A stretch of DNA of 64,000 bases, taken from an uncultured Bacteroidota bacterium (lineage in GTDB: Bacteria; Bacteroidota; Ignavibacteria; UBA10030; UBA6906). A program made the translations under genes and the position numbers. Under the pieces are notes generated by a model, which did no database searches, was not told the origin of the DNA, and saw nothing but the letters and a program-made list of their open reading frames with translations. Positions 2,236 to 21,988 of this stretch are shown piece by piece. The stretch spans positions 1,503,835-1,567,834 of the forward strand of contig CAVZWW010000003.1 of assembly GCA_963779225.1 (NCBI GenBank), given 5' to 3'. Position 1 is the first letter of the stretch, and every line of letters starts with the position of its first letter.

Positions 2236-3108
2236 CTACTTCTTCTTCCAGTCGGCAATCAGCTGTTCCGTCGCTGTCACGTTCGCACCGGGATTCTGAG
2301 CCTTGGCGAGTTTGATCGATTCCTCGCCAAGAGTGATGGCTTCTTTGAAATTCCCCTTCTCGGCCAACAATTGCGCCTTCGTCCGGACGTTCGAGGCATT
2401 ACGGTTGAGTGCCAGAGAGCGGTCCACCCAAACCATGGCCTGTTCAAGCGAGAATTTCTCGGTCAGACCGTACCGGGCCGCCTGATTCAGCACACGCCAG
2501 TCACCCACCTGCGATTCGATGTTTGCCAGCGTCGCAAACTCGGCACTGAAGCCCACTGCAAGCTTCTCCCACGCAATCACCACCCGTGTAGACGTCGGGG
2601 TCAGATCGGTGAAGGTAAATGACAGCCATTCCTCGTGCGGATTCGCGACCGGCTGCACATTGATCTTCAGGGTGTCATATTTGGGCTCATAGATCGTCCC
2701 CCAGTTCTTGACTTCAGTGTTAAAGACCAACTGCCACTCGTTTTTCCCCGGGATGATCAGGAAACGGTATGTTCCCGCGCCCAGCCTGGCGCCATTGATG
2801 GTGACCGGATCGCTGAAGGTGATCAGGGTCGGTTCGTTTGCACCGACACGCCAGACCTGGTCATAGGGGAGCAGTCCGCCCCAGATAGTCCTCCCCTTCA
2901 CGCCGGGGCGGTGATACGTTACGGTGATTTCGCTCAATCCGACGACCTGTTTGACCATTGCCCCCTGGCTGATCATCGGAACACGGCGTTGGGGGAGTTC
3001 GGGGGCTCGGACGGTCTGGGCGTGCAAAGCGGTGCTGCCGAGCAACAGGACAGCGCAGAGCGATATGCCTGCAAAGAGGCGGACTGGGGTGGTCATAGTG
3101 ATCTCCAT
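2236..3108 (-). CDS. secreted DUF2911-family protein
   Basis: 290 aa. The signal peptide (LFAGISLCAVLLLGSTALHAQ) is followed by ...GRTIWGGLLPYDQVWRVGANEPTLITFSDPVTINGARLGAGTYRFLIIPGKNEWQLVFN, which matches the DUF2911 core pattern known from Bacteroidota. The C-terminus has a TPR-like helical tail. Confidence 0.6.
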   Translation of the reverse strand: MEITMTTPVRLFAGISLCAVLLLGSTALHAQTVRAPELPQRRVPMISQGAMVKQVVGLSEITVTYHRPGVKGRTIWGGLLPYDQVWRVGANEPTLITFSDPVTINGARLGAGTYRFLIIPGKNEWQLVFNTEVKNWGTIYEPKYDTLKINVQPVANPHEEWLSFTFTDLTPTSTRVVIAWEKLAVGFSAEFATLANIESQVGDWRVLNQAARYGLTEKFSLEQAMVWVDRSLALNRNASNVRTKAQLLAEKGNFKEAITLGEESIKLAKAQNPGANVTATEQLIADWKKK

Positions 3109-3327
3109 ACTGTAGGATGTGGGAAAAGTGGTGCGGTAAGGTAGGAAAGTGGGGGGTGACTTACAATGGGGGGTGACTTGCAGCGTTTTCTTCTTGCAGG
3201 TGATGCGGGTTTCAGGTACTTTTTAACTCTACCGCGCAGGAATTCCTGCACTCTGAGCGTCGGTGTACGGGATATCATTCCGTGCTTTTTGACCCTGTCA
3301 AATGATCGTCTACATGAGGAGACATCC

Positions 3328-4305
3328 ATGGAGTTCTTGCTTGGTGCTGCCGTTCTGATCGGTGTCGTGATCGCGATCGAATACCGGTTTCGGAATCCGG
3401 ACAGTCTCATCATTCGTGAAGGGAAGGAGGGATTCGCGGAGCGGAAGTCCCGGCTCTACCCGCGGCACCTCAGCCTGGTGCTGCCCCGGACAACGCATGC
3501 GTTCCAGGTGAGGGTGGAGGCAATTGCCAGGGGGAATCTTGACGTGCGCGCCGTACTGGCGGCGTCTGTGGCGGCCTCACCCGACCATCTTGACGCACTG
3601 GTCCGCATGGGCGGATGGCGGAAAGATGCCGTCGAACGTGCGGCGAAAGAACTGGAAGGTCAACTGCAATCGCAGGTCAAGGAGTACACCGAACAGTTCA
3701 CGGTGGAGGAGTTGTCGTCGCAAAAGCTGCTTGAATATCTGCAACAGCAATTGCCGGCCAGCAAAAAGGGGCTTGGTATCGAGGTGGTCTCTCTGGTGCT
3801 GCTTTCGTACGGTCCCGGCGAGACGCGGATTGTGGAGGCGCTTCAGCAGCAGGAACATGCCCGCATTCTCGAGCGGACCGAAACTCTGGAGCAGCAGGCG
3901 CGCATCGCCGCTGCTAAGACGAAGCTGAAGGCGGACGAAGAGATCGCCCTGCTCGAACATGCGCTCGAACTGAAAAAGTACGAGATGAAGAAGACTCAGG
4001 TCGAGCAGGAATCCGCGCTCGCCGACCTTCGTGTCGATGACGATATCCGCCGTCACCGCAAGCAGCTTCTGCTCGATAAGGAAGAATTCGAGATGCTGAA
4101 GAGCAACCCCGAGCTTCTGATGCTGACTCCCCAGGCAGCCCGTCTGGCGGAAGCCAGTCAGGGGCTAAGGAACGCCCGCACCATCGTTTCGCTCTCGCCG
4201 CAGGATCTGGCGCAGGGGTCGGACCTGCTCGGCATGTTTCAGCGGCTGCTCCAGAACGCGCTGGGATCGCGCACCGGCGGAGAAGCGGCTCCTAAGACCA
4301 AATAG
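3328..4305 (+). CDS. membrane-anchored SPFH/band-7-like protein with a long C-terminal coiled coil (flotillin-like)
   Basis: An N-terminal TM helix (MEFLLGAAVLIGVVIAIEY) is followed by an SPFH-like beta-rich segment and then about 200 aa of heptad-like Glu/Lys/Leu-rich sequence. The ORF track opens at 3166, but the first ATG with a plausible N-terminal TM segment is 3328. Confidence 0.45.
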   Translation: MEFLLGAAVLIGVVIAIEYRFRNPDSLIIREGKEGFAERKSRLYPRHLSLVLPRTTHAFQVRVEAIARGNLDVRAVLAASVAASPDHLDALVRMGGWRKDAVERAAKELEGQLQSQVKEYTEQFTVEELSSQKLLEYLQQQLPASKKGLGIEVVSLVLLSYGPGETRIVEALQQQEHARILERTETLEQQARIAAAKTKLKADEEIALLEHALELKKYEMKKTQVEQESALADLRVDDDIRRHRKQLLLDKEEFEMLKSNPELLMLTPQAARLAEASQGLRNARTIVSLSPQDLAQGSDLLGMFQRLLQNALGSRTGGEAAPKTK

Positions 4306-4340: not shown

Positions 4341-7300
4341 GTGTCATCTACTTCCTCCCATCATATCGATCCATTGTGGCCTTTCCGGCTCAAGCCGATC
4401 AAGGCGGCCCGCGTTTCGGAGATCAGCGAAGCGACCGCCGCCTCTGAAACGCCTCCGGAAGAGCGCGTCAACTTCCATATCGGAAACCCGGTGCAGGACG
4501 AACGGCTCCGGTCAGCCTACCTCCGTATGGTGCTCGGGATCGACATCCGGCGTGACGACCTCGGCGAAGATGCCACCGATCAGCTGCTCGCCGAACTTGC
4601 GTGGGAACCGGACGACCGTCGGGTGATTGAGTTCCTGCGCACACTCATCGGCAAGAGCGGGCCATATACGCCCCGCGGGGGTTTCACCCGGGCCAATCCG
4701 CATCGTATCACCCAGGAACTCTCCAGGTGGCTCCAGCAACAGGAGACACTGACGTATGATCTGGGGCAGGTGACCGGGAAGCGGGAGATCATTCTTGCAT
4801 CTGGAGGGATTGCCGAAACGTTGCGCGTCCTGCTCCATGCACTCTCGGCGAATCTGGTGGAGAGGTCGGCGCACTTCTTTTTCCTGAACACGGATGTTGA
4901 AGTCGATGAAGACCTCTTCAGCGGGATGCGCTTCGAACGTCTTCCGTCAGACGGGCAGAGCGCGCTGGCGAGGATGGCTGAACATTTTACCTCCGTGCGG
5001 GAAATGCCGACGTTTCTCTTTATCGGCTGTGCACTGCAGGAAGATACGCGCCGGGCATTGCGGCAAATGAGCATCGAGGCACCGCTGATGTTCATCGAGG
5101 CCAATGACGAACCCAACCACCGGTCACTGGCACGGGAAGCGAAACTCGTGCACCGTGTCGTCCGGATGCTGACGCCGGGAATTTTTTCGCCGAAGCTTCG
5201 TGATCTTTCCACCGTTTTTCTCCTGGGCAATGCAGGTATCCTGGGAGTTTTTGAATCCATGCACTTTCAGCTGAAAGGCACGCCCTCCGCTTCCGAGCTG
5301 GAATTGCTGGCATACCTCCTCGATCGGCGTGAAGATTGGGAGGGGGTGGCGACAACCTCGATTGAACTCCCCATTGACCGTCAGGGGGAGCGATTCGTGG
5401 CGCTCAGCAATGTCGGAAAGCCTCTTGCCGGGTATGCGGCTCGGGTCGAACGTCTCGCAGAACACGCTACCGAGAATCGCGTCGGGAGATTGGTGGAGAG
5501 AGCCCTGAACATCGGGGCCAGGGTCGATCTCGCTGTTCAGCGCCTGCAGGAGAGGGCTCATGCCCCGGGCGTCGAAATGTTCGCGCACACAGATGCACGG
5601 ACTCTCGTGACCGATCTGGCGGCGAACGTGGAATCCGTGGCGTGGCGGGTGGCGCTGCGTGACAGTTTCCTTCAGGTATTTCTCAGAAGCCATCCGGAAT
5701 ACCTCCCTTCTGCATGTGTTGTCGTCAGCGGGTCCTCGCGGACGGCGCTGGGATTGCTCGGGTTTCACTGCGGCATACGGGAAGTCATCATTCCCGATTT
5801 GAGCTGGAGCTATGAACATTGCTTCCCGAGGGTTGAAGCTGTTCCCCTGACACCGGACTACACTCTCGATGCCGATGCGATTCTGGCGGTCGTCAGAAGA
5901 AAACTCGCAGCGGATCCGCAGTGGCATCGTTACGGCGCGGTGGCGATCAATAATCCGCACAATGCGACCGGACGCGTATTTCGTGAACACGACGTCTCCC
6001 GGCTTCTCGTCGGACTGCTGGAGATGAACATTCTCGTCATCGACGATCTTTCATACCAGGATGTCGCGCCGGAGGAAGGGCTGCCGGGTATTGCCACGCT
6101 GCGTCAGCTGGCCGACGGTCTGGTGCGGGCGGGGCGGTTGACGGAACAACAGACCGTGAACGTTGTGACGGTGCATTCGGTGTCCAAGACCGATTCCCTG
6201 GCGGGTGCAAGGCTGGCTGTTGTGGAAATCCGGCAGGCCGGTCTTCGAAAGGCATTCCTCCGCGTGGAGGAGCGCATACAGCCGAACATCGCGGCAATCC
6301 TGATGACGTATCTGTTCTACCGGAACACCCCCGAAGTGCCGCGCGCATACTGGCAACTCCGGAACAGGATCTTCCTGGAACGAAGCGAGGCATTGCTCCA
6401 GGCATCTACACAATTGCCAAAGGAGCGGAATACCTTCGCTATCAGGATTCTCCCTCCGACCGGCAGCATGTATCCGCTTATGGTGATCGACCGTCTGCCT
6501 TCCGGCCTGTCGCTGGACTGGCTTGCATCCGGACTGGCACGCCAGGGCATCGGGATTCTGCCGCTGTCCACGTTTGCGCGGACGGAGGAAGGGTTTGAAA
6601 CGGGACGCAAGACATTCCGCCTGACTCTCGGCGGAACGGATGGTGCGGAAACGCTCCGGATCAAAACACGCCGGGTCCTGATTGACCTCAATCGTCTTGT
6701 GGAGCAGGAGGCATTCCGGTACAACCGGCACTACGCATCCTTGATAACGGTCCCGGTCCGGTTCCAGGAAACGCAGGACAGCGCTCGATGGGCGGAGGCG
6801 ATGGAGACCGTGCAGCACGAATGTGTCCGGATGATGCATCCTGCTCCCCGCCCGTTCCAGGGAGTTGTGGCGGATGCCCGCTTCAGCGAGGAGTATGTGC
6901 CGGCCCGGCTCGCGACGCTGCACCGGCGCTATCGCGATCGTCTGATGCTCGCCGATTACACCATTGCCGCTGCGGATGTGGACGGGGCGAGGTCGCTCGC
7001 GGTCCGGCTGGAGCGTGAGTTTTACAAAGACTCCCTTACGCAGCGCCAGGCCACATTCCAGAACCGCCTGTACGATCGAACGGTGCATCCGACACAGATG
7101 TACTCCATCAAGGTGGAACAGGCTGCGGACGAGGTCATCGCCGGGATCGTGCGGGGGGAGGGAGCGACGACTCAGGCAGCAACCTCACTGGCAAAGGCCC
7201 TTCAGGCGGAATTCCTTGGACTCAATGTGGCCATCTCGTCGAGCGAGGAATCGGACGAACTGCTTCTCGATCTTGATGCCCTTATCGCCGCCGAAAATCT

Positions 7301-9944
7301 CCAGCGCCTGACCGCGGGCGATGACACGAGGCAGCAGGTGTCCTTCTGGGGGGACTGGGACGGCAGCAACCGGCCTTCGGGTCAGGGTCATCGTCTTGTG
7401 GCGACGACCCTGATGGCCAATGTCACGCGCATGTCACGTTTACTCTCGCTTGTCGTGCGGTCGGCGGACCCGCCGGGAGTTGACAGCTCGCTCGTCGATG
7501 AACTCCGGCAATTGCCGGAGAAGAACACACGATTTTCTGTTCTGCTGCATGATATCACCCGGTTGACCCATCAGCTGGAGAAACGATATCGCGGCATCCT
7601 CCCGGTTTTCGTCAAACCCGGGGCCGTCCGCGGTCTCGGCATGAAACTGGGTATTGCGCGTGACCCGCTAACGCTTCTCTGGCGCCATAACGACCGCCTG
7701 GAACGGAAGATGTTCCATCTGCGGACGCAACGACGGGAATCCCTCGAATACTACTTCAGCCTCAACAAGCGGTTGCGCAAGCAGCTCCACGGGTTGATAC
7801 GCGTCATTCAGCAGCAGCGGCACGACGTGCGCCTTCTGGTCGAAGCAGGGCAGTATGGCGACCTGCTGCAGCGCATGGTGATTACCCCCCGGATCCATCA
7901 GAATATCATCACCGCGCAGGATTCGTTTGCCATCGACACCACCGTGCACAACATCTATGAAATCAACGAGATATCCGGACGGTACGGCAACCCGGGCATG
8001 ATCCTCACCCTTCAGGTGAGTATGTCGACGAAGGCGGAGGCGCTTATCGCGCTCGACAGGAAAATGCGGGCGCATCACGAGCAGACGCTGCGCGAGCATC
8101 CGGATCTCGAGTTGCCGATCGTGAGGCTCGTTCCGCTGTTCGAAGATCTGGATGCCATTGAGTCGATCCCCGCCTATCTCCAGCAGATCTGGGATTATGC
8201 GTTCCAGAGCCGCCGGCTCAATCAGGAAACGGAGGATCGGTTTGTCGAAATCATCGGAGAAGTGTTCATCGCCGGTTCGGATATCAGTCAGCAGGTGGGA
8301 CAGGCGGCGGGGGCGGTGCTGTATCGAAGAGCCAAGCACAAAATCATCGTCTGGCTTGCCGAACACCGGCTCGTCGATCATGTGCGGTTGAAAATGGGAA
8401 GCGGGGAGCCCATGCAGCGCCAGGGCGGCTACTATGCACCGATGTCGGGGAAACCTGCCTTTGAGCGGGGGACGCTCGCGTCGCTGCCGGCATCGCTGCC
8501 TGCAGCGGCGCGCAAGAGTGCACAGTACGCGACAACGCCGGTGATGGGGATCTTCGGGGGCGGGGACCTTCGCACCCTTCAGGGGACAATTTCCGAACAG
8601 CTGCGGTCTCTGCCGGTGGAGGAACGTCTGCACGTCCTCCATCACCTCCGGGAAGCGCAGCGCCATCATCGATCCGCTCTTATCAGTGCCGCGGAAGCGC
8701 TCGTGGAAAGCAGGATGAAGCAGCACAACAGGGGGTCGCAGCAGCTGGAGAGGCTGACGATCGGGAACGCTGATTCCGTTTATGACCGATTCATCGACAT
8801 GCTGACCGAGGATTTCCGTCAGATTCTGTACGGAAGGGAGGAGGATGCGCTGGGGATTCACATCATTGCCTATTTCATTGCCCGCTCTATGCCACAGCTG
8901 CGTGATCGTCCGACCGTCCGTCCCGTCCGGGGGAGTGCCGGCGCTCGCGGTCAGGAAATACTCGGTGAGGTCGCGCGCATGATCCCGTTGAGCCGGCGGG
9001 GCAGCCTCCTCCGGGCCATCGCGCACAATCAGTCGCAGACAATGGTGCTGGGCATCAATCAATTGACGACCGGTCTGTTTCGGGCGCTTCAACGCTTTGC
9101 CGGAGTGGAGTTCACCGAAGGGCATGCGGAGACTCTGATCGTCGATCGCATTCTTCCCCAGCTTCCTGTGTACGAGATCCTGCAGTCGCTCCGGTTGTAT
9201 CATGATCCGGAACTGCGCTGGCTGAAGGAGGTCGAGGCGGCGTTTCCCGCGGGCAATTCAGCTTTTCTGGCTTTGCGTGAAGACAATGACAGCATGCCGC
9301 ACTTCATCGGCCTCCTGCAGCAGGAATTACTGCGCCGCCATGGGATGGATGTTAATGACTTCTTTGACGACGGGAAGCTCCTTCCTGATTTGCTCCCCCA
9401 TCTCCGGCCGGATCTGGCGATACTCCTCCAGGGGAATCTGTTCAACACCGACGTGGAGCAGATGCTGGATGGCGTTCACACGTCGTTCAACACGGCCTGG
9501 AGGAATGCGGTGGCGGAAGGTATGGGCATACCGGATCAGATCCGGACCTGGCGGTCGGCCATCTGGGGGTTGCTGAAGCAGCCGATAGTGGATCGCGTCC
9601 GGAGTTTTGCCGAACTTGCCGTGGCACTTCATTCTCTTTCCCCCGCGGACATTGCGGGTGTGGCAACCGGGAGGCCGTCGAAGCTCAAAGTTTCCGATGA
9701 GCTTTCGCACTTCTTCCGTTCCGCGAATCAGAATGACGAGCTTCGCGATTTTCTGGCATCGACGCTCCGGTATCTCACGGCGTTGTCGGAGGGGATGCTG
9801 GAGGTGCCGGTGTCCATTATCCGTTCCATCAAGGAAGTCGAACGAATCGCGATGATCGAAGAGCAGGAGGTTTCGCCGGAGAAGCAGGATTTGTTGCGGT
9901 ATTACCTGCTACAGATCGCGCGTGTGGCGGGGGAGAACGGGTAG
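4341..9944 (+). CDS. giant 1867-aa cytoplasmic multidomain protein. A PLP-dependent aminotransferase class I/II fold region (about aa 40-900, possibly a tandem pseudo-dimer) is fused to a C-terminal PEP-carboxylase-like domain (about aa 930-1867).
   Basis: Aminotransferase motifs include NFHIGNP near the N-terminus, then VVVSGSSRTAL, EVIIPDLSWSY, AVAINNPHNATGRVF, ILVIDDLSYQD and VHSVSKTDSLAGARLAVV (a Lys-containing SxSK motif). PEPC-like motifs include VSMSTKAEALIAL (compare ISMAKTPSDVLAV), RLVPLFEDLDAI (compare VPLFETIEDL), EVFIAGSDISQQVGQAAG (compare MIGYSDSAKDAG), LKMGSGEPMQRQGGYYAP (compare LFHGRGGSIGRGGAP) and a C-terminus ...IARVAGENG (compare ...IAAGLRNTG). The start is GTG at 4341 with no obvious ribosome-binding site, so the start is uncertain. 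Confidence 0.75.
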   Translation: MSSTSSHHIDPLWPFRLKPIKAARVSEISEATAASETPPEERVNFHIGNPVQDERLRSAYLRMVLGIDIRRDDLGEDATDQLLAELAWEPDDRRVIEFLRTLIGKSGPYTPRGGFTRANPHRITQELSRWLQQQETLTYDLGQVTGKREIILASGGIAETLRVLLHALSANLVERSAHFFFLNTDVEVDEDLFSGMRFERLPSDGQSALARMAEHFTSVREMPTFLFIGCALQEDTRRALRQMSIEAPLMFIEANDEPNHRSLAREAKLVHRVVRMLTPGIFSPKLRDLSTVFLLGNAGILGVFESMHFQLKGTPSASELELLAYLLDRREDWEGVATTSIELPIDRQGERFVALSNVGKPLAGYAARVERLAEHATENRVGRLVERALNIGARVDLAVQRLQERAHAPGVEMFAHTDARTLVTDLAANVESVAWRVALRDSFLQVFLRSHPEYLPSACVVVSGSSRTALGLLGFHCGIREVIIPDLSWSYEHCFPRVEAVPLTPDYTLDADAILAVVRRKLAADPQWHRYGAVAINNPHNATGRVFREHDVSRLLVGLLEMNILVIDDLSYQDVAPEEGLPGIATLRQLADGLVRAGRLTEQQTVNVVTVHSVSKTDSLAGARLAVVEIRQAGLRKAFLRVEERIQPNIAAILMTYLFYRNTPEVPRAYWQLRNRIFLERSEALLQASTQLPKERNTFAIRILPPTGSMYPLMVIDRLPSGLSLDWLASGLARQGIGILPLSTFARTEEGFETGRKTFRLTLGGTDGAETLRIKTRRVLIDLNRLVEQEAFRYNRHYASLITVPVRFQETQDSARWAEAMETVQHECVRMMHPAPRPFQGVVADARFSEEYVPARLATLHRRYRDRLMLADYTIAAADVDGARSLAVRLEREFYKDSLTQRQATFQNRLYDRTVHPTQMYSIKVEQAADEVIAGIVRGEGATTQAATSLAKALQAEFLGLNVAISSSEESDELLLDLDALIAAENLQRLTAGDDTRQQVSFWGDWDGSNRPSGQGHRLVATTLMANVTRMSRLLSLVVRSADPPGVDSSLVDELRQLPEKNTRFSVLLHDITRLTHQLEKRYRGILPVFVKPGAVRGLGMKLGIARDPLTLLWRHNDRLERKMFHLRTQRRESLEYYFSLNKRLRKQLHGLIRVIQQQRHDVRLLVEAGQYGDLLQRMVITPRIHQNIITAQDSFAIDTTVHNIYEINEISGRYGNPGMILTLQVSMSTKAEALIALDRKMRAHHEQTLREHPDLELPIVRLVPLFEDLDAIESIPAYLQQIWDYAFQSRRLNQETEDRFVEIIGEVFIAGSDISQQVGQAAGAVLYRRAKHKIIVWLAEHRLVDHVRLKMGSGEPMQRQGGYYAPMSGKPAFERGTLASLPASLPAAARKSAQYATTPVMGIFGGGDLRTLQGTISEQLRSLPVEERLHVLHHLREAQRHHRSALISAAEALVESRMKQHNRGSQQLERLTIGNADSVYDRFIDMLTEDFRQILYGREEDALGIHIIAYFIARSMPQLRDRPTVRPVRGSAGARGQEILGEVARMIPLSRRGSLLRAIAHNQSQTMVLGINQLTTGLFRALQRFAGVEFTEGHAETLIVDRILPQLPVYEILQSLRLYHDPELRWLKEVEAAFPAGNSAFLALREDNDSMPHFIGLLQQELLRRHGMDVNDFFDDGKLLPDLLPHLRPDLAILLQGNLFNTDVEQMLDGVHTSFNTAWRNAVAEGMGIPDQIRTWRSAIWGLLKQPIVDRVRSFAELAVALHSLSPADIAGVATGRPSKLKVSDELSHFFRSANQNDELRDFLASTLRYLTALSEGMLEVPVSIIRSIKEVERIAMIEEQEVSPEKQDLLRYYLLQIARVAGENG

Positions 9945-10028
9945 GATTCCGGAAATCCCGGTTTTCGTCGTTTTCGTTTGACAATGAAGACCGCCGTTTG
10001 TAGATTTCGTCAGTGATAATTCCCAGGC

Positions 10029-10053
10029 TCACTCTCACAGCAGTGAGTTTTTT
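10029..10053 (+). terminator. rho-independent terminator-like hairpin (GCTCACT-8nt-AGTGAGT followed by TTTTTT) 85 bp after the giant ORF
   Basis: A 6-7 bp stem is followed by a six-T run, which is rare in this GC-rich sequence. Confidence 0.5.
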
Positions 10054-10061
10054 GTGTGAAT

Positions 10062-10081
10062 TGATGTTAGCGCTAACATCA
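10062..10081. promoter_or_regulatory. Perfect 20-bp palindrome TGATGTTAGCGCTAACATCA; candidate LacI-family operator (site 1 of 3), 91 bp upstream of galT.
   Basis: The core TGTTAGCGCTAACA fits the generic LacI/CcpA-type operator pattern TGnnAnCGnTnnCA with a central CG. An identical 20-mer occurs at 12636-12655 and the 14-bp core at 56126-56139. Confidence 0.5.
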
Positions 10082-10171
10082 TGCGGGGAAAACATTTGCT
10101 GTCGCCAGGGAGCGCAACAAATTGGGCGCCGACTGCTTAACACTGGAAAGAACAAGGCCCTGCTCGCTTCG

Positions 10172-11200
10172 ATGAACCTTGCAGATCACCCTCACAGGCG
10201 ATACAACCCCCTCTCCGGAGAATGGATACTCGTGTCGCCCCACAGGACAAAACGGCCCTGGCAAGGCAAACAGGAACCTCTGGGTGACCTTCATCGTCCG
10301 GCGCACGATCCGGACTGTTACCTGTGTCCCGGCAATACCCGTGCCGGCGGCCATAAGAACCCGGACTATACGGGGACCTACGTCTTCACCAACGACTTTG
10401 CAGCGCTCCTCCCGGATGGTCCGGTTACATCCGCCACTCCCCATCCGCTCGTCAGGTATGAAGGAATTCAGGGGACGAGCCGGGTTGTCTGCTTTTCGCC
10501 GCGACACGATCTCACGCTCCCGGAGCTTGCGATCCCTGAAATACGTCAGGTGGTTGACACCTGGGTACGGGAGTCGGCTGAACTGGGCAAGCTCTACCGC
10601 TGGGTCCAGATTTTTGAAAACAAGGGTGAGATGATGGGATGTTCGAACCCCCACCCTCATGGGCAGATCTGGGCGGGGTCGTCATTGCCCGCCGAACCGG
10701 CAAAGGAACATCGCCAACAGCGGGAGTATCTCACGCAGACCGGGGCGATCCTCTTGTTGGACTACCTGCGGTACGAAGTTGAATGCTCCGAGCGGGTCGT
10801 GCTGGAAAACACACACTGGGTTTGCCTGGTGCCATTCTGGGCGGTGTGGCCCTTCGAAGTGGTACTCCTTCCCCGGCGGCATGTTCTGCGTCTGACAGAC
10901 CTGATGGAGGGGGAACGGGACATGCTTGCAGACATCCTCAAGCGTCTTCTGACACGCCTTGACAATCTTTTTCAGATTCCCTTTCCGTATACATTCGGCT
11001 GGCACGGTGCACCGTATCAGGAACATGCCCCCGAATTCTGGCAGCTCCATGCGCATCTGATGCCCCCGCTTCTCCGTTCTGCCACCGTGCAGAAATTCAT
11101 GGTCGGCTATGAGCTGCTTGCGGAGCCTCAACGTGACATTACACCCGAACAGGCCGCCGCGACGATGCGGACTATGCCGGAGGTTCGATTCCAGCCGTGA
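10172..11200 (+). CDS. galT: galactose-1-phosphate uridylyltransferase
   Basis: [25 protein letters not shown], a CxxC zinc motif and the active-site HPHGQIW motif are present. The ORF track start at 10013 is replaced by the in-frame ATG at 10172, which matches the usual GalT N-terminus. Confidence 0.9.
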
Positions 11201-11325: not shown

Positions 11326-12474
11326 ATGAAGTTCGCCAGACCGGTACTTCGGTATGCACTCGTCCTGATCATTGCAAGTTTGAGTGGGTGTTCAAAAAGA
11401 ACGGAGGAGGCCGGAGTCATGAAACCGCAACCCTTTGGAACCACGGCCGACGGAGCAGAGGTTTCCCTCTATACGCTGAAGAACCGCGCCGGCATGGAGG
11501 CGACAATCACAAACTACGGGGGGATCGTTGTCTCGCTACGTGTGCCGGACAGGATGGGGAAGTTCGACGATGTAGTGCTTGGATATGAATCCCTCACAGG
11601 GTATCTCAAAGAGACACCGTATTTCGGTGCGCTGATCGGGAGGTACGGGAACCGTATCGCCAGGGGGAAGTTCACGCTCAATGGGAAGGGATACTCCCTT
11701 GCGACAAACAACGGCAAGAATCATCTGCACGGGGGCCTGAAAGGTTTTGACAAGGTGGTCTGGACGGCCGAGCAGACAGAGACGCCGGCGGGTCCTTCGC
11801 TTGTGCTCACCTATCTGAGCAAGGACGGTGAAGAAGGATATCCGGGCAATCTGCGGGTACGGGCGGTCTACACCGTTACCGAAGCCAATGAACTCGCCGT
11901 GGAGTTTTCAGCGACGACCGACAAACCGACGGTGGTGAACCTGACGCATCATTCATACTTCAATCTTGCCGGTGCCGCATCGCCGACAACCATTCTCAAC
12001 CATACCATCATGATCGATGCGGACCGGTTCACGCCGATAGACAGCGGCCTGATCCCCACGGGTGAGCTGCGGGAAGTTACTGGAACCCCGATGGATTTCA
12101 GGACCCCGACGCCTATTGGTGCCAGGATAGATGTGGCTGACGAGCAGCTGCGGTTTGGCCTGGGGTATGATCACAACTGGGTGTTGAACAAGAGGGACCA
12201 GGGCATGAGGCTGGCGGCACGGGTGGAGGAGTCCACGACGGGAAGAATTCTGGAGGTTCTGACTTCGGAACCGGGGATACAGTTCTACTCGGGGAATTTT
12301 CTGGACGGCACGCTGGTGGGCAAGGGGGGGAAAGCATACGTGTACAGGTACGGCTTCTGCCTGGAGCCCCAGCATTTCCCCGATTCGCCGAACAAACCGG
12401 ACTTCCCGACCGTCGTGTTGAATCCCGGGCAGACGTACGGGCACAAGATATTGTATAGATTTCTGGTCAGGTAG
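11326..12474 (+). CDS. galM: aldose 1-epimerase (galactose mutarotase), lipoprotein
   Basis: A lipobox (LSGC) is present. GalM motifs include YGGIVVSLRVPDRMG, GALIGRYGNRIA, NHLHGG and THHSYFNL. Confidence 0.85.
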   Translation: MKFARPVLRYALVLIIASLSGCSKRTEEAGVMKPQPFGTTADGAEVSLYTLKNRAGMEATITNYGGIVVSLRVPDRMGKFDDVVLGYESLTGYLKETPYFGALIGRYGNRIARGKFTLNGKGYSLATNNGKNHLHGGLKGFDKVVWTAEQTETPAGPSLVLTYLSKDGEEGYPGNLRVRAVYTVTEANELAVEFSATTDKPTVVNLTHHSYFNLAGAASPTTILNHTIMIDADRFTPIDSGLIPTGELREVTGTPMDFRTPTPIGARIDVADEQLRFGLGYDHNWVLNKRDQGMRLAARVEESTTGRILEVLTSEPGIQFYSGNFLDGTLVGKGGKAYVYRYGFCLEPQHFPDSPNKPDFPTVVLNPGQTYGHKILYRFLVR

Positions 12475-12879: not shown

Positions 12880-15042
12880 ATGAAATCCCGGTTCTCTTTG
12901 TTTGCCATAGTCGCACTGGCGGTGGTCAGTACCGTCGGGCTTCGTGCGCAGGGGCTCGAGCCGATTGGCGGTCCATACACCGTTGACTCGAACACGGTGG
13001 TGCTGCTGCACTTTGACAGCACACTGGTGAATGCCGCTGCAACAGTCGGCAAGACCGCTGCCGCCGCTGTTTCCCACACCACCAACCCGGCCAAGATTTA
13101 CTACATCAACAACACCGGCGTTACCGGTATGGGGAAATGCATCCGTCTGGACAACAGCGCCAGCACTGATTCAACGTACCTCATGGTGCCGGATACCGCG
13201 GCGTTGGATCTGACCGGCAGCTGGACCATTGAAGCCTGGGCGAACATCTTCACGTTTGGAGACAATGCCCAGGACTATCGCTGGGTTCCGCGTGTGTGCA
13301 TGAAACCCGCCGACGTGACGTTCTATGATGGCGCCAACTGGTGGATGGAAATGTGGGGCGACAGTCGTTCGTTCCAAACAGGTTATGTCGCAGAGTCAGG
13401 ATCGTACGTGACGACGTCGTCTCCCGCCAATATGTTCGTTCCGGGAGAATGGGTCCACCTGACGTTTATTCGCGACACCGCGCGTTCGTTTATCGCGGTC
13501 ATGGTTCATGATAAGGACAAAAACCTAAGAGGATTTATCACGCAGGGCTTTACCAAAGGCGATCAGCCACGTACAACGAAGCAGGCGGTGCACATAGGGT
13601 GGGCAGGAGCGGTTGGCATCACCAATGCAAGCAACGATTCATGGCTCGACGGATTTATTGATGAACTCCGCATCAGCAAAGTGGTCCGGAATTTTGCTGG
13701 ACCTCCGGTCATTTCGAACAAGATCATACTTCCAAACCAGCCGTCGACCGCAGGGTCCTATCCCGTCAGCGTCACTGCGTTCCCGCTCAATGCCGGCGGA
13801 AGCATCACGAGCGCAATGCTGATGTACCGCACCGACACCGTGAGTGCATTCAGCAGCGTCACCCTGAGCGCGGGTCCCAACGACACGTTCACCGGCGCCA
13901 TCCCCGGCCAGGCGTTCGGCACGATTGTGCAATACTACTACAAGGTGACGGACAACAACAGCCTGTATTCTCTGTTCCCGTCCAATGCTGAAACGACGAC
14001 CAATCCAACCCGGCTGTCCTTCGGTATCTATCAACCCAATTCGATGACGCTTGATCTGACATTCGAGGAAGGTCCGACCAACCCCCCGATCGACCATTCC
14101 CCGAACAACTGCACGATCGTTACGCGCGTACAGAAGGATTATTCGACGGACGTTCCGACGGGCGGCGGCACCTACTCGTGGCAGTTAAAGACCCACCCGG
14201 GAATCCTTATTGATTCCAACTGGGTTGAGGCTGTTTCGCCCTTCCTCGCGGCGGAAGAGTTCACACTAGACTGCTGGATCAAGGCAGACTCCGCCGACAG
14301 GCATGCAACACGGATCATCATCAACCCGTCTGCAGAGCAGGACTGGAATAACGCCAACTTCGAGCTGAGTTTCCGCAACGGTGCAACCCTCCCCGTCTTC
14401 ACTGCTCGATACTGGAACAATGACGGTTCCGGTGCGCCCACTCTGCAGGACACGCTTGTCGCAGGGACGGCACATGTCGGCAAATGGCGGCATGTCATCA
14501 TCGAGAGGAATAAGACGAGCAGCGAGTTCGCCATGGCAATCAAGGATGAGAACGACGTACTGATGTTCAAGAAGGTCGTCGCCGCGCCAAAACCCCCGCT
14601 GATGGCCGGTGCACCTCTCCGTATCGGACGGTCGTGGTTCGACGCTGCCGATAATTACTATGTCGCTCCCTTCCGCGGAAGAATCGACAACGTCAAGGTG
14701 TACAACTATCCGGCGGCCGGGATTACCACTTCAGTGGATCCTGGGGCCGGCGAAACCACACCGTACACGTTCGATCTGGCTCAGAACTATCCGAACCCGT
14801 TCAACCCGACCACGCGGATTGAGTTTGTGGTGCCGAAGGCGATGACTGCACAGCTCATCGTGTACGACGTGCTCGGCCGCGCGGTGAAGACGCTGTTCAA
14901 CGAAGAGACGCATGCCGGTTCGCACTTCGTTCAATGGGACGGCACGAACCAGGGTGGCCTGGGCGTGGCGAGCGGCGTCTACTTTGCCCGTTTGAGAGCG
15001 GGAGATTTCGAGAAGACGATGAAGATGATGCTCATGCGATGA
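12880..15042 (+). CDS. secreted T9SS cargo protein with two LamG/concanavalin-A-like lectin domains and a C-terminal T9SS sorting domain
   Basis: A signal peptide is present, together with the motifs IDELRISKVVRNF and IDNVKVYNY. The C-terminus ...QNYPNPFNPTTRIEFVVP...SGVYFARLRAGDFEKTMKMMLMR is a canonical type-A T9SS sorting domain. A GGAGGG ribosome-binding site is present. Confidence 0.8.
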   Translation: MKSRFSLFAIVALAVVSTVGLRAQGLEPIGGPYTVDSNTVVLLHFDSTLVNAAATVGKTAAAAVSHTTNPAKIYYINNTGVTGMGKCIRLDNSASTDSTYLMVPDTAALDLTGSWTIEAWANIFTFGDNAQDYRWVPRVCMKPADVTFYDGANWWMEMWGDSRSFQTGYVAESGSYVTTSSPANMFVPGEWVHLTFIRDTARSFIAVMVHDKDKNLRGFITQGFTKGDQPRTTKQAVHIGWAGAVGITNASNDSWLDGFIDELRISKVVRNFAGPPVISNKIILPNQPSTAGSYPVSVTAFPLNAGGSITSAMLMYRTDTVSAFSSVTLSAGPNDTFTGAIPGQAFGTIVQYYYKVTDNNSLYSLFPSNAETTTNPTRLSFGIYQPNSMTLDLTFEEGPTNPPIDHSPNNCTIVTRVQKDYSTDVPTGGGTYSWQLKTHPGILIDSNWVEAVSPFLAAEEFTLDCWIKADSADRHATRIIINPSAEQDWNNANFELSFRNGATLPVFTARYWNNDGSGAPTLQDTLVAGTAHVGKWRHVIIERNKTSSEFAMAIKDENDVLMFKKVVAAPKPPLMAGAPLRIGRSWFDAADNYYVAPFRGRIDNVKVYNYPAAGITTSVDPGAGETTPYTFDLAQNYPNPFNPTTRIEFVVPKAMTAQLIVYDVLGRAVKTLFNEETHAGSHFVQWDGTNQGGLGVASGVYFARLRAGDFEKTMKMMLMR

Positions 15043-15073
15043 GCAGGGAATTCGTGTTTTGCTAAAGAATTAA

Positions 15074-15130
15074 GCCCGCAGGGCAGGGGCCCCCGGTTGC
15101 ATAGAGCAGCCGGCGGGCCCTGCCGGCGGG
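15074..15130 (+). terminator. GC-rich imperfect hairpin after the 12880 gene (possible terminator or attenuator)
   Basis: GCCCGCAGGGCAGGGGCCC ... GGGCCCTGCCGGCGGG. The arms pair imperfectly and no T-tract follows. Confidence 0.25.
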
Positions 15131-15155
15131 TGTACATTGACCGATCGGGGCGCGT

Positions 15156-15806
15156 ATGCCGAAGAGGTACAGTCTATTCGTTCCCGCCATCATCCTTGCG
15201 GGAGTTCTCCTGTCCTGCAGAACAAGTGTCGAACCCTCTCCTGAGCCCGGCATCATCAGGGTGACGCTGAAGGGTGCGGACTGGGACACGAGCATCGTCA
15301 TCCAGAATGACACGTCGAAGTTTTCACGATGGGACAAGTTTGACGTGATGGTCTCACAGGGCAGATTGTACCAGGGCGAAATCTATGCGTACATCTACAA
15401 CAATCCGAGCAGTGAACGGAAGGCGAGCGACACGGCGAATATTCTCGGGCGGGAATGGCTGGACGGAACACCGATTACCACGGGCGATACGGCCACCATC
15501 ACACCGGCGAACAGCCGGTTCCGGAAGTACCTCGTGTTTGAATCCTATGCGCCTCCCGGTACGTATGACAGGATTTCTCTGTCGCTGGTTGCCTATGAGA
15601 TGGAGATCTTCATCCCCAAACACTATCTCAATCCGGTCATGCTCCCGCCCGACGTGGCGCCCGGCATAGATTTTCCCGGTACGTATACAATCACCGAAAA
15701 CGGTGTGACCGAAGTCGAGCTCGAGCTGGCTCCATACCAATCCCTGGTGCGGTATCAGGATATGTATTACTTTGAACGCAAAATCGCTGTTGTCGATGTG
15801 CACTAG
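15156..15806 (+). CDS. hypothetical lipoprotein
   Basis: The signal peptide carries a Cys (LLSC). No motif was recognised. Confidence 0.55.
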   Translation: MPKRYSLFVPAIILAGVLLSCRTSVEPSPEPGIIRVTLKGADWDTSIVIQNDTSKFSRWDKFDVMVSQGRLYQGEIYAYIYNNPSSERKASDTANILGREWLDGTPITTGDTATITPANSRFRKYLVFESYAPPGTYDRISLSLVAYEMEIFIPKHYLNPVMLPPDVAPGIDFPGTYTITENGVTEVELELAPYQSLVRYQDMYYFERKIAVVDVH

Positions 15807-15881
15807 CATGACATCCACAGGGCGGGCAGATGCGGTTCTGCACCCCTGTCTGACCGGAGTATCGATGACTACAGGTGTCTT

Positions 15882-17366
15882 ATGAAAAGACGGTTCACGG
15901 TTCCGGTGCTCTTGTTTACGCTGCTGCTTGCTGTTGTGCACATTTCCTGCGAACGGCCAACAGATCCGCCAAACCCCAACGGCCCGCCTCAAACGAAGCT
16001 GGCAAATGTCCCCAAGGAGTTTGACACCGTCTTTGCCCTGGTGAACATGAGCTGGAGCGGCGGAGACAATGACGGGTTTATCACGAACTACCAGTACCGG
16101 TACTTCACCTACCATCTTATGCCCGGGTCGAGCACGGAATGGGTGCTCTTCGATTCCACGGCCTGGAAGGACACCGTCGGGACAGGAGTGCTGCTTGCCT
16201 TCAATTCCACCGAAGCCCTCAACAAGCAACTTTTCTTTGTGCGTGCGGTGGATAATGACGGCAACCCTGATCCAACGCCGGCGGTGAAGGTTCTCTACAC
16301 GGTGAGAACGGTCTCGCCGATCACGAGGATCCTATCCCCGACGAACAATGGCAGCGTTCTCGTGAGTACGACCGTCACCGACTGGTGGAATGGCGTGCTG
16401 GTTATTTTCAAGGCCACGGATCCCACGGGTCTTGCCCAGATTGTGGAATATGCATGGGCGGTGGACGACGGCCCGTGGACCTGGCAGAAGGATACGTCGG
16501 TGTTCATCACTCCGGAGAAATTCGCGGCGCCACTCAACGGCATACACGAAGTGAAGGTGATTTCGCGCAATAACACCAACCTGATAGATCCCGTGGGCGA
16601 TTCGATCAGTATTAATCTGATTATTCCTCCGTTCAACAAGGGCATCCTGATCATCGACGAAACTGATGAATTCAACAATCCCTTTATCACCCTGGGGATC
16701 CCCGATTCGGTGACCGATGCATTCTACGCCCAGGTGTTCCCCGGCTCCGCGAGCTGGGATTTCAAAACTCAGGGGATGCCTCCCCGCGAAGTCATGGCGC
16801 AGTACAGGCTTGTGGTCTGGCATGCCGATGATGTCCCCACCAGCCGCCCCCACAAAATTTCCGATCCGGCGAACATCGAAGTGTTCACCGACTACCTGAA
16901 GGTGGGGGGAAAATTTCTGATGAGCGGCTGGCGGATCCTGAAATCATTCGCCTACTACAACAACTTCCCCTTTACATTCTCTTCGGGATCGTTCGTGTAC
17001 GATTATCTGCATATCCGCATGGTCACCGAGACAGATATTCTGGGCGACATGTCGGGGGGGAAGGGAAAGACCGGTGTGTTCAGCAGCTTCAAGGTGGATT
17101 CCACGCGCCTGGCGTTTTTCCCGTACAACGGCCGGTTGTCGCAGGTGAATCTGATTATCACCATGGCGGGCTTTACGGATATCCTCTATTCCTATCAAAA
17201 CGACGACAGCAGTCCCAATGTCACCTACCGGGGACGTGCGGTTGCCCTGCGGTACTACGGCACGGTTTACGATGCCGTGGTACTCGGTTTTCCGATGTAT
17301 TTCATAGATGAGAACGATGCAAAGGTCATGGCAAAAGAAATTGTCCGGAGTCTGCATGTCGAGTGA
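15882..17366 (+). CDS. hypothetical secreted/lipoprotein (494 aa)
   Basis: The signal peptide ends in ISC. The protein is predicted beta-rich and no motif was recognised. It overlaps the next gene by 11 nt. Confidence 0.6.
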   Translation: MKRRFTVPVLLFTLLLAVVHISCERPTDPPNPNGPPQTKLANVPKEFDTVFALVNMSWSGGDNDGFITNYQYRYFTYHLMPGSSTEWVLFDSTAWKDTVGTGVLLAFNSTEALNKQLFFVRAVDNDGNPDPTPAVKVLYTVRTVSPITRILSPTNNGSVLVSTTVTDWWNGVLVIFKATDPTGLAQIVEYAWAVDDGPWTWQKDTSVFITPEKFAAPLNGIHEVKVISRNNTNLIDPVGDSISINLIIPPFNKGILIIDETDEFNNPFITLGIPDSVTDAFYAQVFPGSASWDFKTQGMPPREVMAQYRLVVWHADDVPTSRPHKISDPANIEVFTDYLKVGGKFLMSGWRILKSFAYYNNFPFTFSSGSFVYDYLHIRMVTETDILGDMSGGKGKTGVFSSFKVDSTRLAFFPYNGRLSQVNLIITMAGFTDILYSYQNDDSSPNVTYRGRAVALRYYGTVYDAVVLGFPMYFIDENDAKVMAKEIVRSLHVE

Positions 17367-20169: not shown

Positions 20170-20186
20170 GCAGAAAGAGAACTCTT

Positions 20187-21956: not shown

Positions 21957-21988
21957 TCCAGCCTTTGCGCACTTGAAGGTGAAGAGCA

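Follow-up and report, generated by a model that had tools for sequence, protein, structure and literature searches.

Introduction

Few enzymes of central carbon metabolism have been studied as well as the PEP carboxylases (PEPCs), none of which, to our knowledge, is found as a fusion with an aminotransferase. The bacterial/plant-type enzymes (PF00311) include E. coli Ppc (PDB 1jqn) and the PEPCs of maize and Flaveria; the archaeal-type enzyme (atPEPC, PF14010), e.g. Clostridium perfringens PepcA (PDB 3odm), is about 530 aa long. A 2020 review of the PEP-pyruvate-oxaloacetate node gives four PEPC types and no fusion (PMC8100219). Ordinary class I/II (fold-type I) aminotransferases of the COG0436-like group, such as E. 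coli YbdL, KAT/BNA3, the PatB C-S lyases and ACC synthase, are homodimers of ~400 aa. Some SPFH/Band-7 scaffolds come with a partner of their own, as HflK/C do with FtsH and as in the stomatin/NfeD operons.

Here we analyzed a window, i.e. a whole stretch of 64,000 nucleotides of DNA, in which a single ORF downstream of an SPFH/Band-7-like gene joins aminotransferase-type and PEPC-like modules. Unlike the COG0436-like aminotransferases, its aminotransferase domain is embedded in an 1867-aa chain, between a probably degenerate aminotransferase-like module and the PEPC-like module. The latter is 16% identical to atPEPC and, at about 1,060 aa, twice its size; it differs further from atPEPC in being fused behind two aminotransferase-like modules, with no clear free-standing form among the representatives listed, in its lid motif (GSGEPMQRQGG), in its obligate SPFH partner and in that its activity is predicted. 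Bacterial/plant-type PEPC is similar in overall size to the module and likewise ends in Gly, but has a tail past the LRAI motif that is shorter by about 140 aa. The SPFH protein resembles HflK/C-FtsH and stomatin/NfeD in its N-terminal membrane anchor, SPFH domain and coiled coil, and in a fixed operon with its presumed client. However, the client here would be a giant enzyme of metabolic type, neither a protease nor NfeD, the SPFH domain is barely at the Pfam threshold, the C-terminal motif is family-specific and the pairing is known from the genes. Our overall explanation, including its mechanism, is that of a conserved two-gene module of an SPFH scaffold and a three-module cytoplasmic enzyme, and we give it a probability of roughly 60%.

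Results

A widely conserved three-module protein

The ORF at 4341..9944 of the forward strand starts with GTG and encodes 1867 aa followed by a stop codon, exactly as given in a preliminary description made from the sequence of the window. It is a genuine, widely conserved bacterial protein and not an assembly join. Three conserved modules are separated by two variable linkers. Homologues were found in 345 species genomes by genome scan, the best 80 loci all being full-length, and at least 120 full-length homologues at 51-88% identity were present among the matches listed. In a search of 1.84 billion representatives, the full-length fusion formed about 40 clusters at 50% identity. Full-length homologues span about 1,790-1,950 aa and belong to the Ignavibacteriota/Bacteroidota, Chloroflexota (Anaerolineae) and Acidobacteriota. 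Conservation was scored on 31 divergent representatives of the fusion (34-52% identity), and "invariant" refers to these throughout. Databases label the protein only "aminotransferase"; the fusion is absent from their names, and we found nothing relevant in the literature on PEPC-aminotransferase fusions, "PEPC-like" proteins or SPFH-aminotransferase operons. The few shorter homologues among the matches listed resembled fragments.

The aminotransferase domain

The class I/II PLP aminotransferase-fold domain occupies aa 419-795 (5595..6725, + strand). All of the motifs that the preliminary description had quoted for it were found in the ORF: VVVSGSSRTAL (aa 459-469), EVIIPDLSWSY (481-491), AVAINNPHNATG (533-544), ILVIDDLSYQD (564-574) and the Schiff-base motif VHSVSKTDSLAGARLAVV (611-628), which contains K616 (codon 6186-6188). 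As had been predicted, Pfam Aminotran_1_2 (PF00155) matched this part of the protein (aa 456-767) with E 5.8e-15 and 55.8 bits, the cut-off being 19.7, and the same family is precomputed for all 120 listed homologues. We looked for the Schiff-base Lys, the Asp that contacts the pyridine N, the Asn, the Tyr, the phosphate Arg and the alpha-carboxylate Arg, and all were present. The set of N541, D569, Y572, K616, R624 and R760 is invariant (31/31) and aligns, with canonical spacing, with the YbdL equivalents; in the S-x-S/A-K motif that ends in K616, S615 is invariant and S613 is kept in at least 90% of representatives. In three dimensions the domain has the structure of fold type I.

The description of this domain as being of the aspartate aminotransferase type was borne out for the class I/II fold and its full PLP set, but not for the substrate. 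The domain fell into no characterised NCBIfam subfamily (best scores about 25-27 bits against cut-offs of 276-553), and the label "aspartate" is not justified. It may act as a transaminase, as a C-S lyase or as a decarboxylase.

A divergent PEPC-family module

The C-terminal module, aa ~807-1867 (6759..9941, + strand), has a TIM-barrel core with helical elaborations. It had first been taken to cover the last ~940 aa, but its start lies at about aa 807-850, which gives a length of about 1,020-1,060 aa, because the motif DRTVHPTQ (aa 912-919) belongs to it. Searches with sequence alone stayed below threshold. Pfam PEPcase reached 13.1 bits against a gathering cut-off of 22.4 (E 0.022), so that the HMM match proposed as a check was not obtained; the best members of the fusion family gave E 7e-4 for PEPcase and 0.008 for PEPcase_2, an NCBIfam search detected no PEPC in the C-terminal part, and phmmer and hmmsearch of PDB sequences with this part or its profiles returned no PEPC but spurious caspase-3 matches at E about 1.

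PEPC homology was settled by structure prediction with fold search and by profile-profile alignment with shuffle controls. The top Foldseek matches of the module were bacterial/plant-type PEPCs (E 8e-11), no non-PEPC protein matched at significance, and the fold was a TIM barrel with the helical elaborations specific to PEPC. By hhalign, the module and PEPC were collinear over 726 columns with a score of 40.4, compared with 14-26 for 21 shuffled or reversed controls; alignment with the single E. coli Ppc sequence gave E 0.22. Identity to PEPCs is 12-16%. The PEPC-like blocks quoted in the preliminary description are all present and were profile-aligned to the E. coli Ppc blocks named there. 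These results support its central proposal, a previously undescribed fusion, within one chain, of a PLP aminotransferase fold of class I/II and a complete PEPC-like domain. Of the two outcomes named there as refuting it, a C-terminal half with no significant PEPcase profile or structural match and an assembly join, neither was obtained.

Active-site residues of the PEPC-like module

Residues were compared with those of 12 bacterial/plant-type PEPCs in E. coli numbering. DRTVHPTQ (7074..7097; this and the following motifs lie on the + strand) is the equivalent of PEPC TAHPT and is invariant in 31/31 representatives, with H916 aligned to H138, itself invariant in 12/12 PEPCs. Both the GRGG loop and the TAHPT region had been called degenerate; for TAHPT this does not hold, its equivalent having been overlooked on account of its position ahead of the "last ~940 aa". 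The equivalent of SWxGGDRDGNP, SFWGDWDGSNRPSGQG (aa 1001-1016, 7341..7388), is nearly invariant in the fusion family, and its W1006 and G1008 correspond to W248 and G250, which are invariant in PEPCs. The metal ligands E506 and D543 correspond to E1268 in PLFE (aa 1265-1268, 8133..8144) and D1314 in AGSDISQ (aa 1311-1317, 8271..8291). RDRPTVRP (aa 1521-1528, 8901..8924) contains R1523 and R1527, equivalent to R699 and R703, and LRAIAHNQSQ (aa 1557-1566, 9009..9038), the counterpart of PEPC LRAIPW, contains R1558, equivalent to R713.

By analogy with PEPC, E1268 and D1314 are metal ligands, R1146, R1523 and R1558 contact the PEP phosphate, R1360 is the lid arginine and H916 the catalytic base. 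H916, E1268, D1314, R1360, R1523 and R1558 are invariant (31/31), as are their partners in the 12 PEPCs; R1146 is kept in 28 of the 31 representatives and its equivalent, R396, is invariant in the 12 PEPCs. In E. coli numbering, the module thus has in common with bacterial/plant-type PEPC H138, W248, G250, R396, PLFE506, SD543, R587, R699-P, R703 and LR713AI. The density of invariant positions is highest in the PEPC-like core (12.2%). The protein ends in RVAGENG (9921..9941), in which G1867 is invariant and N1866 at least 90% conserved; the final Gly is like that of PEPC ...(R/K)N(T/S)G, the 12 PEPCs ending in xNTG or xNSG, and the tail lies outside the hhalign alignment.

The remodelled glycine-rich lid, RLKMGSGEPMQRQGGYY (aa 1349-1365, 8385..8435), keeps R1360 (= R587); set against FHGRGGxxGRGG of bacterial/plant-type PEPC it reads KMGSGEPMQRQGG, with H579 replaced by M/L, R581 by S/C, G583 by E and G588 by Q. 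In AGSDISQ, Y541 is replaced by G1312 and K546 (of YSDSxKD) by Q1317. Across three phyla, the residues that stand in these places are fixed or almost fixed, which points to selection for a different lid function, not to decay. The changes leave the lid with less positive charge and an extra acidic residue, which is not expected of a site that handles bicarbonate and carboxyphosphate. K620 is not kept in the fusion family, nor is the allosteric aspartate site of bpPEPC, K773 being replaced by H/Q and R832 unaligned.

The N-terminal module

The N-terminal module (aa 10-335; 4368..5345, + strand) is an alpha/beta unit in which NFHIGNP (aa 44-50) and PYxPRGG (108-114) are invariant; it has 20 invariant positions in all. 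Its secondary structure in the AF2 model comprises seven strands, whose spacing resembles that of the aminotransferase domain. The module lacks a Schiff-base Lys, matched no HMM in Pfam, NCBIfam or PDB, and was not significantly similar to YbdL or AspC by hhalign. A reading of it as a recognisable aminotransferase was therefore set aside on the lack of any such match, with a weak internal similarity remaining: against the protein's own aminotransferase module it scored 29.6 (E 0.005), where shuffles scored 12-23. The weaker N-terminal copy, or tandem pseudo-dimer, suggested earlier is consistent with this internal score but finds no backing among the Pfam and PDB matches. The module is probably a degenerate aminotransferase-like large domain.

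The SPFH partner and the locus

The gene at 3328..4305 (+ strand) encodes a membrane-anchored SPFH/Band-7-like protein of 325 aa; its ATG at 3328 was placed by orthologue alignment within a mechanical ORF of 3166-4305. Its parts are a TM helix at the N-terminus, an SPFH domain, a coiled coil and a C-terminal motif at aa 260-290, NPELLxLTPQAARLAEASQxLKNARTIVSL, that is invariant in the orthologue alignment, where the hydrophobic N-terminal segment is also seen. Pfam Band_7 (PF01145) matched it marginally (E 3.6e-5, 24.3 bits, cut-off 23.6) and matched 8 of 14 orthologues (best E 6.7e-8). An orthologue (46-95% identity) lies immediately upstream of the fusion gene, on the same strand, in 82/82 loci with upstream DNA.

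The fusion gene had been placed between an SPFH gene and a glycan locus. The SPFH gene proved to be a strict operon partner, but galT/galM and the other glycan genes downstream are not conserved neighbours. Examined to about 4 kb in both directions, 84 loci showed no further conserved operon member, and the other neighbour "clusters" turned out to be antisense ORFs within the giant gene itself. The genes that flank the pair are of the housekeeping kind (gyrA/B, leu operon) and differ from one genome to the next. A defence-system reading of the gene pair was rejected on these variable flanks and on a PADLOC search with no match for either protein at E <= 0.1.

Discussion

Proposed function

Taken from conserved residues and gene order, the locus very probably encodes a catalytically active fusion of an aminotransferase and a PEPC homologue with an obligate SPFH partner. 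We propose that the C-terminal module would bind Mg/Mn-PEP and make enolpyruvate, which in the simplest case would be carboxylated there by bicarbonate to oxaloacetate. Transamination of this labile keto acid, most simply to aspartate, would fall to the adjacent PLP domain, with the N-terminal module replacing the second subunit that aminotransferases normally need, and the invariant C-terminal motif of the SPFH partner may serve to keep the enzyme at the membrane. A PEP to oxaloacetate to aspartate channel, as proposed before, would be coherent; that the chemistry is specifically PEP + HCO3- to oxaloacetate to aspartate is possible, and we would put it at rather less than an even chance.

In the metabolic scheme published for Melioribacter roseus, Pyc, Pck and Mae appear and PEPC does not (PMC3534657), and a MAG labelled M. 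roseus has a full-length homologue (locus L044), which we counted as anaplerotic context in favor of the two-gene enzyme module. Counted against it were the sub-threshold PEPcase match, the low identity to PEPCs, the replaced lid residues and the lack of an aminotransferase subfamily, as well as the role of a membrane SPFH partner in such a pathway, for which the proposal offers no explanation.

Alternative explanations

The protein could be two separate genes joined artificially during assembly or annotation, a concern raised in the preliminary description. We found no evidence in support of this, and the same full-length architecture recurs in three phyla and in assemblies made independently by many studies, on contigs of up to 2.4 Mb; with the fusion kept in so many species genomes and clusters, the join was rejected and its probability is practically negligible. 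It is also very improbable that the C-terminal similarity reflects a generic TIM-barrel resemblance within the PEP/pyruvate superfamily. Barrels of that superfamily align over about 200-230 residues, whereas PEPCs align over 468-581, and Foldseek matches outside PEPC lacked significance. Moreover, seven PEPC-specific motifs beyond the barrel features (TAHPT, SWxGGDRDGNP, SMxxT, PLFE, YSDS, RPxxR and LRAI) are collinear by hhalign, and PEPC and the module both end in Gly.

Granted PEPC ancestry, the module might be a dead, PEPC-derived pseudoenzyme whose role toward the aminotransferase is that of a regulator, a sensor or a structural scaffold. The departure of the glycine-rich lid from canonical PEPC and the sub-threshold Pfam score are in line with this, and a PEPC-derived sensor is conceivable because PEPCs bind aspartate or malate as effectors (PMC8100219). 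However, the residues of the bpPEPC allosteric aspartate site are lost, the metal ligands, catalytic His and four substrate arginines are invariant among representatives as divergent as these, and invariant sites are densest in the PEPC-like core; the degenerate TAHPT on which this alternative partly rested was an error, since the catalytic His motif is intact. We regard a pseudoenzyme as improbable. Less easily dismissed, though still on the unlikely side, is that the same architecture carries out another chemistry, in which PEP is activated at the conserved metal/arginine site, the remodelled lid has abandoned bicarbonate, and the enolpyruvate or phosphoryl group passes to a different acceptor, which might be an amine or an intermediate formed on PLP by the neighbouring domain, in a reaction that is undescribed. 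The consistent replacement of R581, H579, G583, G588 and K546 across three phyla, together with the loss of K620, argues for it, as do an aminotransferase outside every known subfamily and the scarcity of the C-terminal module on its own (no clear case among the representatives listed from the 1.84 billion searched). The module is also as distant (12-16%) from both PEPC types as these reportedly are from each other (PMC8100219). Nevertheless, the equivalents of H138, E506, D543, R396, R587, R699 and R713 that were kept are precisely the residues on which PEPC depends, a step from oxaloacetate to aspartate connects most parsimoniously with an aminotransferase, and there is no positive evidence for an alternative acceptor. 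We suggest only tentatively, as a minority reading, that the module is a third, unrecognised PEPC-family branch with the PEP/metal site kept, a new lid and a new PLP-coupled PEP reaction in an SPFH client; if true, both the enzyme class and the kind of SPFH client would be new, and the protein would not be a channel of PEPC and aspartate aminotransferase.

Significance of the locus

The locus adds to the PEPC family a deeply divergent branch that current profile libraries miss, and it corrects a systematic mis-annotation, about 1,500 of the 1,867 residues being at present without annotation. The fusion is carried by hundreds of lineages known only without culture, and by a few in culture, within the Ignavibacteriota, Anaerolineae and Acidobacteriota; such lineages are abundant in sediments, soils and bioreactors. 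If PEP is carboxylated, the conserved two-gene module would represent an anaplerotic route of CO2 fixation that has gone unnoticed and a natural design for channelling substrate into aspartate, and if not, a new PEP-dependent reaction. Either way, it offers a concrete soluble-enzyme client for studying the function of bacterial SPFH scaffolds.

Linkers and minor features of the locus

Variable linker 1 (aa 336-418; 5346..5594, + strand) is partly a long helix, with low pLDDT at aa 336-363 and 400-409, no invariant position and a mean top-residue frequency of 0.23. Variable linker 2 begins at 6726..6758 (+ strand), as part of a poorly conserved stretch (aa 796-905) that extends into the first helices of the C-terminal module and has one invariant position. 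No tRNA or Rfam match was found anywhere in the window. A consensus scan, in which the number of terminator-like hairpins was not above that of shuffles, placed one hairpin upstream of the SPFH gene (3265..3285, + strand), a possible operon boundary, and another with a T-run 81 nt past the stop codon of the fusion gene (10025..10050, + strand), a possible operon end. A locus in an Ignavibacteriota MAG (L012) is 90% identical.

Architecture and distribution of the giant protein

The ORF at 4341-9944 (+) is unbroken over 1,867 codons from a GTG start codon, and all of the motifs quoted in the preliminary description were found at the relative positions given there. Among 5.8 billion proteins searched, at least 120 were full-length homologues with 51-88% identity to the window protein, nearly all of them 1,850-1,900 aa long. 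The sole Pfam label on all listed homologues was PF00155, and their source annotations ("aminotransferase" or "hypothetical protein") leave the C-terminal part unnamed. When one genome per GTDB species was scanned, 345 genomes were found to carry a relative. The best 80 of these loci, all with the full-length architecture, were labeled Ignavibacteriota or Bacteroidota (37, including Melioribacter roseus and Stygiobacter), Chloroflexota (38, mostly Anaerolineae), Acidobacteriota (3) or "bacterium" (2), and the protein from one Ignavibacteriota MAG was 90% identical to that of the window. Because full-length homologues are so widely conserved, the fusion is not an assembly chimera, a possibility raised when it was first described.

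An alignment of 31 representatives, each 34-52% identical to the window protein, showed conservation in three blocks with two variable linkers between them: an N-terminal module (aa 10-335, 6% invariant positions), linker 1 (aa 336-418, 0%), the aminotransferase domain (aa 419-795, 8%), linker 2 (aa 796-905, about 1%) and a module resembling PEP carboxylase (PEPC; aa 906-1867, 10%, with 12% in its core, 906-1600). The family is compact: a profile built from the last 1,076 positions was searched exhaustively with HMMER against 1.84 billion 50%-identity representatives and matched only 243 proteins at E ≤ 1e-3, with no canonical PEPC among the top 150 matches. About 40 of the 243 were full-length representatives (~1,700-1,950 aa), in which the matched part always began around residue 690-860 and continued to the C-terminus, and most of the remainder were contig fragments. 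Three proteins, P0121 (1160 aa), P0124 (1385 aa) and P0155 (994 aa), have the PEPC-like module with the N-terminal part short or absent, probably through contig-end truncation.

Aminotransferase domain and N-terminal module

Pfam Aminotran_1_2 matched aa 456-767 (E 5.8e-15), and hhalign aligned the family profile with E. coli YbdL at 93% probability (E 3e-7), pairing NNPHNATG with NTPHNPSA, VIDDLSY with VISDEVY, HSVSK with SSFGK and FRLTL with IRLCF. All 31 representatives share N541, D569, Y572, K616, R624 and R760 without exception, with the canonical spacing of N194, D222, Y225, K258, R266 and R386 in established aminotransferase numbering; the domain therefore looks PLP-competent. It falls outside the characterized aminotransferase subfamilies, since none fits (NCBIfam scores of ~25 bits against cut-offs of 276-553). 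The aminotransferase-type PLP fold proposed earlier stands on the Pfam match, the YbdL alignment and the invariant residues, but the aspartate specificity attached to it is not established.

The N-terminal module, previously read as a weak second copy, gave no HMM match in Pfam, NCBIfam or PDB sequences and no significant similarity to YbdL or AspC. In the structure model, however, it contains seven beta-strands alternating with helices, spaced as in the aminotransferase domain. Over strands d and e the profiles of the two modules aligned in register, pairing FLFIG with AVAINNPHNATG and LMFIE with ILVIDD, and they scored 29.6, above 30 shuffled controls (12.3-22.9; mean 16.7, sd 2.2). The invariant NFHIGNP and PYxPRGG motifs resemble two motifs known from class I aminotransferases, G38-x-P and Y70. 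Where the Schiff-base Lys would stand, the module has Ile or Met. The strand pattern, the internal profile similarity and the two motifs suggest that the module is the large domain of an aminotransferase in degenerate form; with low confidence, it is read as a probable pseudo-subunit.

PEPC homology of the C-terminal module

The PEPcase profile match anticipated for the C-terminal half proved to be below threshold: Pfam aligned aa 1201-1336 with profile positions 472-596 at 13 bits (E 0.022) against a cut-off of 22.4. Other family members reached E 7e-4 for PEPcase and 0.008 for PEPcase_2, and PDB sequence matches to this part included no PEPC. A family C-terminal profile compared by hhalign with an alignment of 12 PEPCs (E. 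coli Ppc and the products of megaplasmid ppc genes) scored 40.4 (E 0.002), against 14-26 for one reversed and 20 block-shuffled controls, and at low stringency was collinear across 726 columns (aa 807-1693 with Ppc 21-873). While the Pfam and PDB sequence searches by themselves were marginal, the predicted structure was decisive in identifying a PEPC homologue. An AF2 model of aa 790-1867 (pLDDT 78, pTM 0.80) was compared with the PDB by Foldseek, and all 42 matches at E ≤ 1e-5 were PEPCs, including E. coli 1jqn (8e-11), the Flaveria, maize and Arabidopsis enzymes and archaeal-type 3odm (about 1e-6); match 43 was an ABC transporter (E 0.008). This bears out the PEPC-like structure proposed for the C-terminal half and, with the corrections noted here, the reading of the protein as an aminotransferase-PEPC-like fusion.

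E. coli Ppc and the giant protein, respectively, have seven motifs with matching order and similar spacing: TAHPT (136) and TVHPT (914), PLFE (503 and 1265), GYSDS (540) and AGSD (1311), GRGGSIGRGG (580) and GSGEPMQRQGG (1353), RPAKR (699) and RDRPTVRP (1521), LRAIPW (712) and LRAIAH (1557), and, beyond the columns aligned by hhalign, C-terminal NTG (883) and ENG (1867). In the profile alignment, SWMGGDRDGNP of Ppc pairs with FWGDWDGSNRP. Residues invariant in both families are H138 (H916 in the giant protein), W248 (W1006), G250 (G1008), E506 (E1268), S542/D543 (S1313/D1314), G580 and G582 (G1353 and G1355), R587 (R1360), R699-P700 (R1523-P1524), R703 (R1527) and L712-R713-A-I (L1557-R1558-A-I); R396 (R1146) is kept in 28 of the 31 representatives. 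In the PEPC structural literature (reportedly Kai, Matsumura and Izui 2003, cited in PMC8100219), these are the metal ligands, PEP-phosphate arginines, lid arginine and catalytic base. Contrary to what had been supposed, the TAHPT region is not degenerate, while the GRGG loop does differ from that of PEPC, as had been noted. Other invariant residues replace Y541 (G), K546 (Q), H579 (L/M), R581 (S/C), G583 (E) and G588 (Q), and the equivalents of K620 and K773 are not conserved in the family. Such a pattern marks a constrained, probably catalytic site with a PEPC-like PEP and metal half. The PEPC lid shields carboxyphosphate and CO2; that of the giant protein has been rebuilt, with positive charge reduced relative to PEPC.

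A conserved pair with an SPFH protein

The gene directly upstream (3328-4305, +) encodes a 325-aa protein with an N-terminal hydrophobic helix, a Band_7/SPFH domain and a coiled coil. The Band_7 match is marginal yet reproducible: the window protein scores 24.3 bits where the cut-off is 23.6, and 8 of 14 orthologues match, with a best E of 6.7e-8. A mechanical ORF starts at 3166 (379 aa), but orthologues without exception have 319-329 aa and open with a hydrophobic MEF.../MW... segment, so ATG 3328 is probably the true start; the 54 additional codons run across a terminator-like hairpin (3265-3285). The C-terminal part of the protein contains an invariant motif, NPELLxLTPQAARLAEASQxLKNARTIVSL. 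Across 14 sequences drawn from three phyla, 20 of its positions are invariant, and it is a candidate enzyme docking site or oligomerization element. This ~30-residue stretch (aa 260-290, window about 4105-4197) is the best conserved of the protein, above the SPFH domain.

Of 84 related loci searched by tblastn, 82 have the SPFH gene directly upstream of the giant gene and in the same orientation, and the other two begin at a contig edge. Identity of the SPFH protein (46-95%) follows that of the giant protein. Clustering of all flanking ORFs in the 84 loci found no further conserved neighbor; flanks vary by genome (gyrA/B, leu operon, galT/galM, ferritin and others). Terminator-like hairpins, identified at consensus level only, flank the pair at 3265-3285 and 10025-10050, and PADLOC found no defense-system similarity. 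The SPFH protein and the three-module enzyme form a fixed unit. The two-gene module is ~50% identical across Ignavibacteriota/Bacteroidota, Chloroflexota-Anaerolineae and Acidobacteriota. Housekeeping proteins of these phyla are usually far less alike, which suggests that the whole operon passed between phyla.

Proposed function and alternatives

The model and alignments together show a PEPC-fold module whose PEP, metal and His site is intact. It would convert PEP to a keto acid; the most parsimonious reaction is the bicarbonate-dependent one to oxaloacetate, a strongly exergonic step (PMC8100219). The keto acid would be aminated by the PLP domain, in the simplest case to give aspartate, and the SPFH protein may hold or organize the enzyme at the membrane. 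In the published metabolic scheme of M. roseus (PMC3534657), pyruvate carboxylase, PEP carboxykinase and malic enzyme appear but PEPC does not, so the giant protein could supply that activity, although anaplerosis is already covered in the scheme. This function is directly testable, and unproven.

That the C-terminal module is a dead scaffold is unlikely because its catalytic residues are invariant. A different PEP-dependent reaction is a serious alternative, though less favored than the PEPC reaction; the lid changes relative to PEPC, the aminotransferase's lack of a subfamily assignment and the unexplained SPFH partner speak for it. By homology to PEPCs (archaeal and bacterial-plant types) and class I aminotransferases, the giant protein would be expected to work like them, but it fails the curated PEPC profile threshold and lacks the canonical lid and K546. 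For these two reasons the C-terminal module is not classed as a PEPC but is placed in the PEPC superfamily as a branch that is new and divergent. Searchable literature yielded no description of a fusion between PEPC and an aminotransferase, of a comparable "PEPC-like" protein in bacteria or of an operon pairing SPFH and aminotransferase genes; the giant protein is a real feature, a new combination assembled from known folds.

Surrounding genes

No tRNA genes or Rfam families at gathering threshold were found in the 64-kb window (1-64000). Downstream of the giant gene are galT (10013-11200; GalP_UDP_transf N and C domains) and galM (11326-12474); VIT1 and a P-type ATPase intervene in the 86%-identical relative L006. 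As listed from GTG 10013, the galT ORF overlaps the 10025-10050 hairpin, and translation probably begins some 45 codons further on, since the L006 orthologue has 350 aa. A run of genes for secreted or outer-membrane proteins at 12880-22909 (+) is probably the "glycan locus" of the preliminary description. Among its members are a 720-aa protein carrying Laminin_G_3, FlgD_ig and T9SS Por_Secre_tail domains (the sole protein scanned in the run), a 953-aa TonB-dependent-receptor-like ORF (17308-20169) and ORFs of 494, 589 and 306 aa with signal-peptide-like N-termini. Upstream of the module are an SSF sodium:solute symporter (377-2089, +) and a DUF2911 protein (2236-3108, -; E 7e-45), a pair absent from this position in more distant loci and also preceding the module in L006.
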